From the NCBI RefSeq assembly GCF_053078305.1, contig NZ_CP166879.1: 64,000 nt of DNA; one strand, written 5' to 3'. This document shows, one piece after another, positions 15,223 through 16,067 of the stretch. The position numbers were made by a program, and so were the translations under genes. How positions within the stretch are numbered: the first letter of the stretch is position 1; each line of letters begins with the position of its first letter. The notes below the pieces were generated by a model that made no database searches, was not told where the DNA came from, and saw only the letters and a program-made list of their open reading frames with translations.

Positions 15223-15523
15223 ACCCACATAATCTCATCTTCGCTACATTGCAACTAATTATAGTTACAGGCAGTGTTTTTGTCAAAAGCCACCAAGCCC
15301 GCTGGGTTCTCTTTGACTGTTCGCTGCTTTTCCTGGTGTTATCCGGGGGCTTTTCCCTCACGCCAAATCTCACACAGAGTAACCGGCCTCAGCGTCGGTT
15401 TTTCTTTGCGCATCCTCCATAACTCACCACCTGCATTATCCTCGCTTATATTTTTTACATAAATAAATTAATCTAAAAATCAATCACATAGATTAAAATT
15501 AAATCAAATTATTAGCCTTACTA

Positions 15524-15553
15524 TTGACTATGATAAGTTGAGCTTATTATATT
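15524..15553 (+). promoter_or_regulatory. Candidate pL-type sigma70 promoter
   Basis: TTGACT, 15-18 nt spacer, TATTAT/TATATT in AT-rich DNA beyond cI and hicAB, oriented toward the gam-bet-exo operon. Confidence 0.3.
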
Positions 15554-15607
15554 TTACCCAAGCCAGAAACATCGCGCCCTTACACAGGGCTACATAAATC
15601 AGTCGTA

Positions 15608-15645
15608 CGGCGCGACTTAACCCGCCGCAAAATGCTCTTTAACAA
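15608..15645 (+). promoter_or_regulatory. rrn-type antitermination-like site: hairpin followed by boxA (TGCTCTTTAACAA)
   Basis: cggcg-N10-cgccg hairpin 15609-15628 then exact TGCTCTTTAACAA at 15633-15645. Confidence 0.4.
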
Positions 15646-16067
15646 TCTGGAGCTTTACAGCGTCAATGACCTGTTTAGACCCCTACACGTAAACGTGCTG
15701 TATCATCGGGTGCGATCCGGTCGATGAGAGAGTATCCCCGCGCGAGAGCGAGAACGGCGTGAGAACGGGCAACACTGGCAGGAAGTTGGCGCTGACCAAT
15801 ACAGGGAATGTTTTGGGGTGCTGAGAGTGCCACCAAAGCGTTGCGTGAAATAGCGATGCCGTCCCAACCCTGTAGCAAAAGTAATGATTGGATACCATAA
15901 GACCAATCACAATCATTCTACGATTACCTATGCCGCACAAAGTTATTTTTTCAACACAATGTTCAAGTTTTCAACTGACTTCTTTATACTACCGCGTAGG
16001 TAGTGCTATCAAATAGACTATGTAAGCACTTCATGAAGGATGTCGGTCGAACTGAACGGGAAACTTA

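Follow-up and report, generated by a model that had tools for sequence, protein, structure and literature searches.

How is the early-left operon of a lambdoid prophage transcribed over its full length when no N protein can be recognised beside it? This question is raised by positions 15229 to 16067 of a 64,000-nucleotide (nt) stretch of contig NZ_CP166879.1 (the whole of this stretch is called "the window" in what follows), which carries an Oslovirus-type Shiga toxin 2a (Stx2a) prophage similar to TL-2011c and P13374. Early antitermination in lambdoid phages is described by two paradigms, i.e. the N protein with its nut sites and the put RNA of phage HK022. In many of the lambdoid phages that have been sequenced, no N can be recognised, and the authors usually guess at a put-like mechanism (e.g. 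PMC12315714).

An initial annotation of the locus had proposed that the early-left promoter, pL, is followed by an N-independent antitermination site, either a put-like RNA or an rrn-like site for NusB and NusE. Here, we find that pL is followed by an exact rrn-type boxA and by a closed, covarying RNA domain of six helices; judged by its sequence, this element is no peculiarity of a single phage without N but a member of the family of the phi80 "nutL" region. The interpretation to which we give an even chance is that positions 15560-15800 are the 5' leader of the pL transcript and form a cis-acting, promoter-proximal, boxA- and Nus-dependent antitermination module, here without a dedicated N. 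From the initial proposal, the non-coding nature of the region, its place at the head of the early-left operon, the rrn-type boxA with its hairpin and the lack of a detectable N have been retained, with the addition that the RNA covaries; the put-like character has been abandoned.

A closed, covarying RNA domain

The GC-rich segment in AT-rich surroundings, described in the initial annotation, is evident in the GC profile: the value is 0.55-0.61 at 15650-15850, while the operators have 0.18-0.34 and the sequence downstream has 0.36-0.40. This island is one closed RNA domain of six helices (P1-P6, 15660-15792; Table 1), in which P1 is a long-range closing helix. The covariation has been assessed in two alignments: the first comprises 23 hand-picked representatives and was not fitted to a covariance model, while the second comprises 55 distinct sequences, including AT-rich members from the Morganellaceae, and was fitted to the model, so that it leans towards the structure. 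In the first alignment, 95.3% of the cells are paired, against 27-43% with slid partners, and 13 pairs show two-sided changes; in the second alignment, the values are 95.9% against 26-41%, two-sided changes occur in 19 of the 33 pairs, and all helices covary except P3, which is invariant. The covariation score was reached by none of 500 shuffles in either alignment. Substitutions in the element are compensatory for the RNA helices, and the unpaired nucleotides GUAUC, GCGAUCCGGU and GAA(C/A)GGGCAACAC of the domain are invariant.

All 33 modelled pairs are able to form in the sequence of the window, the single-sequence minimum free energy (MFE) fold of which recovers P1, P2, P3, P5 and the inner part of P6; the window has a single diagnostic double change, located in P5 (CATCG/CGATG vs CACCG/CGGTG in almost all other members). 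The duplicated motif of the initial annotation, GAGAACGG, does occur twice (15750-15757 and 15761-15768), the first copy being the 3' side of P6 and the second one a joining strand followed by the 3' side of P3; its duplication, however, is not conserved, as the other subtypes keep only the second copy (GAA[C/A]GGG).

The family is defined by the covariance model R1, which consists of boxA, followed at most ~15-20 nt later by the P1-closed domain with P2-P6 and the invariant joins. R1 scores 187 bits (E 2.6e-46) at 15632-15796 of the window, the element measuring ~165 nt including boxA. Both parts of the definition, boxA YGCTYTTTAACAA and the P1-closed P2-P6 domain, are present in the window, and the element has the location that also defines the family: at the 5' end of the early-left transcript, 3' of a repressor on the same strand, and in one copy. 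No family of Rfam 15 matches within 15229-16067 (cmscan of 13000-19000, E<=10).

The boxA and the hairpins of the leader

A hairpin immediately followed by an exact rrn-type boxA had been placed at 15609-15645 in the initial annotation; we find the hairpin, called P0, at 15608-15627 and the boxA at 15633-15645, within a few bases of that location. The boxA is identical, over 13 nt, to the boxA of the Escherichia coli rrn leader, and about 0.002 exact copies would be expected by chance in both strands of 64 kb (estimated by arithmetic). In E. coli genomes, the 13-mer is part of a 51-nt leader with a median of 7 copies per genome; the single location of this leader that was inspected is just 5' of a 16S rRNA gene. 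Throughout the family, divergent AT-rich members included, boxA is kept as YGCTYTTTAACAA, and it is the best-conserved linear motif of the family even in members with 41-47% GC. Because of the exact match to the rrn site and of this conservation, we presume that the boxA of the window, which begins ~73 nt 3' of the predicted pL start, is a binding site for NusB/NusE.

The folding energy of P0 is no better than that of shuffled sequence. Hairpins of differing sequence are located 0-5 nt 5' of boxA in at least six subtypes, and P0 is a position-conserved feature, backed by its position and not by its energy. The small hairpin located further 5' (15576-15590) is specific to the Stx-phage version of the leader and does not occur in the phi80-type leader.

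The phi80 nutL family and its distribution

The element itself is not new, as it has been in GenBank as phi80 nutL since 1985. In a distant BLAST search, positions 15633-15820, i.e. boxA and the domain, match phi80 with 94% identity, in a region that bears the annotations "nutL regulatory signal" (M11919, feature 661-938) and "nutL boxA" and "nutL core" (JX871397); the terminators tL1A and tL1B are annotated downstream of it. R1 scores 193.5 bits on phi80 against 187 on the window, within the range of 89-194 bits of the family members. More distant copies are found at the same place in HK225, in two Klebsiella phages and in the Edwardsiella phage Edno5.

Viral contigs were searched with two pattern scans and reference genomes with one; together with confirmation by the covariance model, these have revealed more than 190 viral or prophage loci that carry the element across Enterobacterales, the hosts including Klebsiella, Kluyvera, Edwardsiella, Serratia, Morganella, Arsenophonus, nine Xenorhabdus species and a further isolate of the Enterobacteriaceae. 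The element occurs, unannotated in every case, in 223 of 5426 complete E. coli genomes: 146 have the Stx-phage version at >=99% identity and ~74 the phi80 version. It is present in Stx2a phages of two outbreak types, O104:H4 of 2011 and O103:H25 of 2006, and in the PA2-type phages of O157:H7. The phi80 version is also found, without annotation, in several laboratory strains, including DH5alpha (NZ_CP076470 DH5a, 4475481-4475648), where the copies presumably reside in the phi80dlacZ remnant.

Within the phage genomes, the element is at the head of the pL transcript wherever the context could be assessed. A repressor was recognisable in 111 of 143 loci, and in these a cI-like gene of the same orientation precedes the element; the repressor is never solely on the opposite strand, and kil-type genes follow downstream in 74 of 108 loci.

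The search for an N protein

The initial annotation had reported no N-like open reading frame (ORF) between cI and the recombination genes, and our searches agree with it. There is no plus-strand ORF longer than 42 amino acids (aa) between pL and position 16068; tblastn of the window with the N proteins of lambda (sequence verified, 100%), P22, phage 21 and phi80 gave no match; the PHROG assignment of the early ORFs of >=90 aa and of selected shorter ones gave no N family; and six-frame scans of the window for a C-terminus of the P22/933W type and for arginine-rich stretches found only stretches that are within genes or outside ORFs. Nor was a nutR found: no boxA with <=2 mismatches occurs downstream of cro in the pR operon of the window, and none is annotated in the phi80 record.

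Across the family, the N protein that is annotated in phi80 (98 aa, from a small PHROG of unknown function, located ~190 nt 3' of the last helix of the element) has homologues in 7 of 108 or 10 of 197 element loci, i.e. ~5%; no locus was found to have an N of the lambda or phage 21 type, and four (~2%) have one that is P22-like. Since no N protein co-occurs with the element across the loci, we infer that the element is N-independent in the phage of the window.

We have given particular attention to the second gene of the pR operon (12837-13139, minus strand), which encodes a 100-aa protein of phrog_852 with the invariant motif EPVSFRxxNxARRxANxRLR. This protein has no match in Pfam or NCBIfam, its best hit among PDB sequences is an unrelated coiled coil (E = 0.013), its AlphaFold model is a three-helix protein (predicted local distance difference test, pLDDT, 67), and Foldseek against the PDB gave nothing below E = 1. 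It is found in 51 of 197 element loci and is absent from 53 of the 84 in which the upstream sequence is long enough; its occurrence is linked to the helicase-primase (Eru1-like) replication module. We have rejected it as a general hidden N partner of the RNA, as it is absent from most phi80-type loci; the protein may still have a subtype-specific role.

The proposed function and its alternatives

We infer that the element binds Nus factors and has antitermination activity, and the proposed mechanism would be the following. The boxA of the emerging RNA would be bound by the host NusB/NusE, which would form, with NusA, NusG and probably SuhB, a loop with the elongating polymerase; the six-helix domain would fold beside the RNA exit channel and would stabilise the complex or touch the polymerase directly, the contact of the domain being possibly with the polymerase, with a Nus factor or, in some phages, with an N protein. 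The polymerase, no longer halted by Rho or by hairpin terminators, would then pass through ~500 nt of untranslated leader and across the terminators in the 15-kb operon (ant, kil, gam, recT, exo, ssb ... xis, int). In reporters, the rrn boxA blocks Rho-dependent termination in a long non-coding 5' untranslated region in a NusB- and SuhB-dependent manner, and a loop between boxA and the polymerase that promotes RNA folding is the model of the authors (PMC4807359).

The features of the region that surrounds the element are consistent with this mechanism. The leader and the spacer that separates it from the first gene make up ~500 nt of untranslated RNA, ~430 nt of which are 3' of boxA and include a C-rich, G-poor stretch; the spacer (15876-16067), with a GC skew of -0.25 to -0.39 at 15850-16000, appears rut-like and may be an entry site for Rho. 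The candidate intrinsic terminator at 16705-16741 lies between the first gene and ant, where a pL transcript would need to read through it; its stem is weak, and it was not called by the consensus scan because its loop is longer than 8 nt. The conserved block stops just 3' of P1, at a mosaic junction, and elements that are 97-100% identical precede unrelated first genes: a secreted protein in the window, a Rha/Ant-like regulator in P13374 and an Ant-like protein in Lyz12581Vzw. This arrangement is consistent with an action on the polymerase at a distance rather than through a local expression platform. In line with it, no conserved expression platform, terminator or processing signal occurs 3' of P1, where the sequence varies by subtype.

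As a separate observation on this flank, the type-A subtype (L019, L043, L046 and many more) has, directly 3' of P1, a mini-ORF of three codons together with a strong ribosome-binding site (AGAGGAGTGATTCCAATGAAGCACTAA), which may be a leader peptide or a device for translational coupling. The extension of the GC island that follows P1 in the window (15797-15875; MFE -30.9 kcal/mol, z = -2.4) is outside the family core and is partly shared with other Stx phages, the homology stopping at 15820-15842.

Several points weigh against an N-independent antitermination module. The terminators that the consensus scan finds in the pL operon of the window are weak. The element occurs in a single copy per phage and not in the pR operon, as R1 gives no second match in the window (64 kb), phi80 and six further phages, whereas both of the phage early-antitermination systems known to us, nut and put, have an L and an R site. 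The very high identity among the Stx phages could be due to recent common descent and not to selection in genomes without N. In phi80, an annotated N gene follows the element, and phages of the Edno5 type carry a P22-like N and a canonical nutR alongside it. In Edno5 itself (locus L008), the annotated gp49 contains an N-like protein (3277-3507, plus strand; MNSRQRRAMRYR...VAIYYARYRK), not labelled as such, with an N-terminal arginine-rich motif and a C-terminus similar to that of P22 gp24, and a likewise unlabelled canonical nutR is located 3' of cro (689-735, minus strand), formed by the boxA CGCTCTTTAAAAA, a 7-nt spacer and GCGCC-GATACA-GGCGC; an N system can thus be present in the same phage as the element, which may be N-responsive in at least some phages. 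Finally, a very divergent N may escape detection: as N proteins are small and diverse, the failure to detect one is no proof of its absence.

A further-reaching reading, which we put forward tentatively and with some doubt, is that the element represents a new class of processive antitermination RNA: the rrn-type boxA would recruit the Nus factors and SuhB, the six-helix domain would dock on the polymerase, no phage protein would take part, and the "N" of phi80 would be dispensable or otherwise employed.

We consider it unlikely that the element is a classical N-utilisation site, where an N-type protein binds P0 or P4 together with boxA and the Nus factors, this N being unrecognised, encoded elsewhere or supplied by a co-resident prophage. 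The phi80 annotation, which puts the N gene and tL1 directly 3' of the element and labels P4 as "nutL core", is in agreement with such a site, but phages that have the phi80 N and phages that lack it share 94-100% identity in this RNA, while N-boxB pairs normally co-vary. Similarly, the Edno5-type relatives encode an arginine-rich N-like protein with a boxA-boxB nutR after cro, and arginine-rich motifs are found at the N-terminus of small ORFs in a few further loci; nevertheless, no protein co-occurs with the element (the phi80 N and the P22-like N, at ~5% and ~2% of the loci, included), no boxB-like hairpin is located directly 3' of boxA, and no nutR has been found in the window or in phi80. 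The arginine-motif protein of the window's pR operon, with its invariant RxxNxARRxANxRLR, also speaks for such a site, yet it is missing from the majority of the assessable loci, its occurrence is linked to the replication module and its predicted structure is a fold of three helices.

It is likewise improbable, in our judgement, that the element is a functional RNA in its own right, i.e. a decoy or a small RNA that is stable or processed, a switch of the early-left operon that senses a ligand or a protein, or a stability element, the boxA of which ensures that it is fully transcribed and folded, as has been proposed for rRNA. The closing helix P1, the multi-way junctions and the invariant unpaired nucleotides resemble riboswitch aptamers and other functional RNAs, but a riboswitch is retained only as one form of this alternative, because no conserved expression platform follows P1, nor does a terminator or a processing signal; in addition, no candidate ligand or target is evident and no Rfam family matches. 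One copy per phage is normal for an RNA gene and unusual for phage antitermination sites; the element is, however, at the head of the pL transcript wherever its context is assessable. In favour of this alternative, boxA, the Nus factors and SuhB have been proposed to act mainly by promoting RNA folding and maturation (PMC4807359).

Very little, finally, speaks for a protein-coding GC island (a minus-strand or a short plus-strand ORF) or for an inert relic of recombination with a phi80-like phage: although three overlapping minus-strand ORFs of 67, 85 and 67 aa are located there, a hypothetical protein is annotated there in some GenBank records and the block is flanked by mosaic junctions, these ORFs have no PHROG family, the ORFs across the element range from 0 to 144 aa through the family, the lengths of the elements differ by non-multiples of 3, the substitutions are compensatory for the helices and the element is conserved across several Enterobacterales families; we agree with the initial annotation that the minus-strand ORFs look spurious.

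Organisation of the locus

The features of the locus are listed in Table 1.

Table 1. Features of the early region of the prophage, in order of position; positions are those of the window.
Feature	Position	Strand	Description
stx2A	6696-7652	minus	
Q	8149-8682	minus	
Early-right genes after cro		minus	in order: phrog_852, phrog_1347, helicase, primase, NinB, NinG, Q, stx2A
cro	13162-13401	minus	early-right operon, transcribed leftwards
cI	13468-14226	plus	transcribed rightwards, as the early-left genes
Between cI and the pL region			56-aa ORF, bidirectional terminator hairpin, minus-strand HicA/HicB module
Operator-like unit	15499-15528		reverse complement of GTCAATAG-N-ATTTGATTTAA; overlaps the pL -35
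Candidate early-left promoter pL	15524-15553	plus	TTGACT, 18-nt spacer, TATATT; sigma-70-like, 10/12 consensus matches
Early-left block	~15560 to int at 30664	plus	~15 kb
Early-left genes, first part			in order: 183-aa secreted protein, Ant, Kil, phrog_1635, GamL, RecT, Exo, SSB, several genes of unknown function
Early-left genes, after SSB and the genes of unknown function			anti-repressors, methyltransferase, Xis, Int (far end)
Small 5' leader hairpin	15576-15590	plus	GCCCU-UACAC-AGGGC, 5-bp stem; MFE fold of 15560-15632
Hairpin P0	15608-15627	plus	CGGCG-N10-CGCCG; by folding; ends 5 nt 5' of boxA
boxA	15633-15645	plus	exact 13-mer TGCTCTTTAACAA; sole exact copy in the 64-kb window
Folded domain	15660-15792	plus	closed by P1, ~133-135 nt; RNAalifold consensus
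P1	15660-15665 with 15787-15792		encloses P2 and P3, which lead to the hairpins P4, P5 and P6
P2	15670-15675 with 15777-15782		
P3	15681-15683 with 15767-15769		invariant CCC/GGG
P4 hairpin	15686-15689 with 15694-15697		"nutL core" label in phi80
P5 hairpin	15704-15712 with 15718-15726		
P6 hairpin	15738-15743 with 15748-15750 and 15755-15757		GAGA loop
3' extension of the GC island	15797-15875	plus	subtype-specific; stem 15800-15806 with 15868-15874 around two hairpins
Spacer before the first gene	15876-16067	plus	untranslated, AT-rich, C>G; GC 0.36-0.40
First early-left gene	16068-16619	plus	183-aa secreted protein
Candidate intrinsic terminator	16705-16741	plus	GGAG-A-CCGCA, 11-nt loop, UGCGG-CUUU, U-tract; fold of 16672-16745

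The pL promoter predicted in the initial annotation is present in the consensus scan, and its predicted transcription start is at ~15560; homology to Stx phages of other immunity types begins at 15559, approximately at this start. The operator-like unit that overlaps the promoter (GTCAATAG..ATTTGAT) recurs inverted in the cI-cro intergenic region (oR, 13451-13475), with shared 7-8-mers, and is a putative binding site for CI.

Between cI and pL, a perfect 13-bp inverted repeat (AACAAAACCCGGC / GCCGGGTTTTGTT, 14517-14548) forms a bidirectional terminator-like hairpin 3' of the 56-aa ORF that is downstream of cI; the cI transcript probably ends there, before the minus-strand HicA (14974-15228) / HicB (14633-14977) toxin-antitoxin module that sits between cI and pL. 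The promoter of this module is a perfect sigma-70 consensus (TTGACA-17-TATAAT, 15286 to 15258, minus strand), and in related phages its position is occupied by a BsuBI-type restriction-modification system.

Two further observations concern the interval between the gene of the 183-aa secreted protein and ant, within the early-left operon. A near-consensus promoter (TTGACA-18-TATATT, 11/12) is located ~35 nt 5' of the hairpin and U-tract of the candidate terminator, and the unit that they form (16642-16741, plus strand) could be a small RNA of ~60-70 nt or an internal promoter and terminator of the pL operon. A match to the small RNA family sRNA-Xcc1 (RF02221), the sole genuine hit of the Rfam scan, follows at 16757-16845 on the plus strand (65.9 bits, against a gathering score of 53).

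Significance

The full-text literature that we have searched, the coverage of which does not extend to the primary phi80 papers, contains no description of the RNA of the element and no statement on N in Oslovirus-type Stx phages. Neither this literature nor Rfam appears to describe the covarying fold of six helices, its distribution over Enterobacterales, its occurrence in Stx2a phages of outbreak types or the near-absence of a cognate N, and the family is a candidate for a new Rfam entry.

The operon that is headed by the element holds kil, gam and the recombination genes, with xis and int at its far end; because of these genes, the element could affect the excision of the prophage and the yield of phage after induction. 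On the further-reaching reading of a new class of antitermination RNA, the composite RNA would be the early-left antiterminator of phi80-like and O104:H4-type Stx2a phages. Common cloning hosts such as DH5alpha contain the element in its phi80 version, and N-less early antitermination becomes directly testable with such a short, autonomous element.

Comparison with known systems

The lambda N/nut system resembles the element in that a temperate phage has, at the start of its early-left operon, a promoter-proximal RNA site with a boxA, presumed here to bind NusB/NusE. It differs in its boxB, the hairpin recognised by the arginine-rich motif of N, as no subtype of the family has one directly 3' of boxA: P4, the nearest conserved hairpin, is 40 nt 3' of boxA within the fold and has UAAA, AAAA or UUAA loops, and a closed multi-helix domain of 133 nt is found in place of the 15-nt hairpin of lambda. 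Beyond boxA, none of the components of a lambda-type system (boxB, N protein, nutR) has been found in the window, which has neither an N homologue nor a second site in the pR operon, and R1 scores ~3 bits, i.e. noise, on the N-nutL region of lambda.

The antiterminator of the E. coli rrn leader has the order boxB-boxA-boxC and works with Nus factors (NusA, NusB, NusE and NusG), SuhB and S4. The element of the window shares with it the boxA 13-mer, a hairpin just 5' of boxA, as in the rrn order, and a long structured untranslated RNA downstream; as with rrn, no dedicated phage protein is evident. In contrast to the rrn leader, no boxC-like TGTGTGGG occurs 3' of boxA in the window, the folded domain has no counterpart there, and the element heads protein-coding phage genes and not rRNA genes. 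The rrn-like site of the initial annotation is therefore supported as far as boxA and perhaps the upstream hairpin are concerned; a copy of the rrn leader beyond boxA has been rejected, as the leader has a score of 12.4 bits (filters off), which comes from boxA alone, against 89-194 for the family, and boxC is missing.

The put RNAs are ~70 nt long, consist of two stem-loops, occur as an L and R pair in both early operons and need no protein factors (PMC9378689). The element and the put sites of HK022 have in common that a nascent RNA acting in cis directly follows pL, that the lambdoid phage has no N-type antiterminator, and the proposed mode, i.e. an RNA that acts on the polymerase that made it; put does so through the zinc-binding domain of the beta-prime subunit. 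It differs in its size (~165 nt including boxA, about twice that of put), in its six helices with long-range closure and in its single copy. As R1 reaches at most 7.8 bits, i.e. noise, on positions 22000-32000 of HK022 (filters off; the presence of putL and putR there is assumed from gene positions), and given the copy number, the size and the architecture, we have rejected a put homologue, and with it the put-like RNA of the initial annotation.

The closest known relative remains the phi80 nutL region, which shares with the window boxA, the helices P1-P6 and the position after pL; the two differ in the 73 nt between transcription start and boxA of the window, and in the annotated N gene that phi80 has 3' of the element and the window does not. 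The phi80 GenBank records contain only the boxA and a 12-nt core, without the six-helix fold or the family. Next to N with its nut sites and to the put RNA, the element is a third kind of candidate antitermination site, which is concrete, strongly covarying and widespread.

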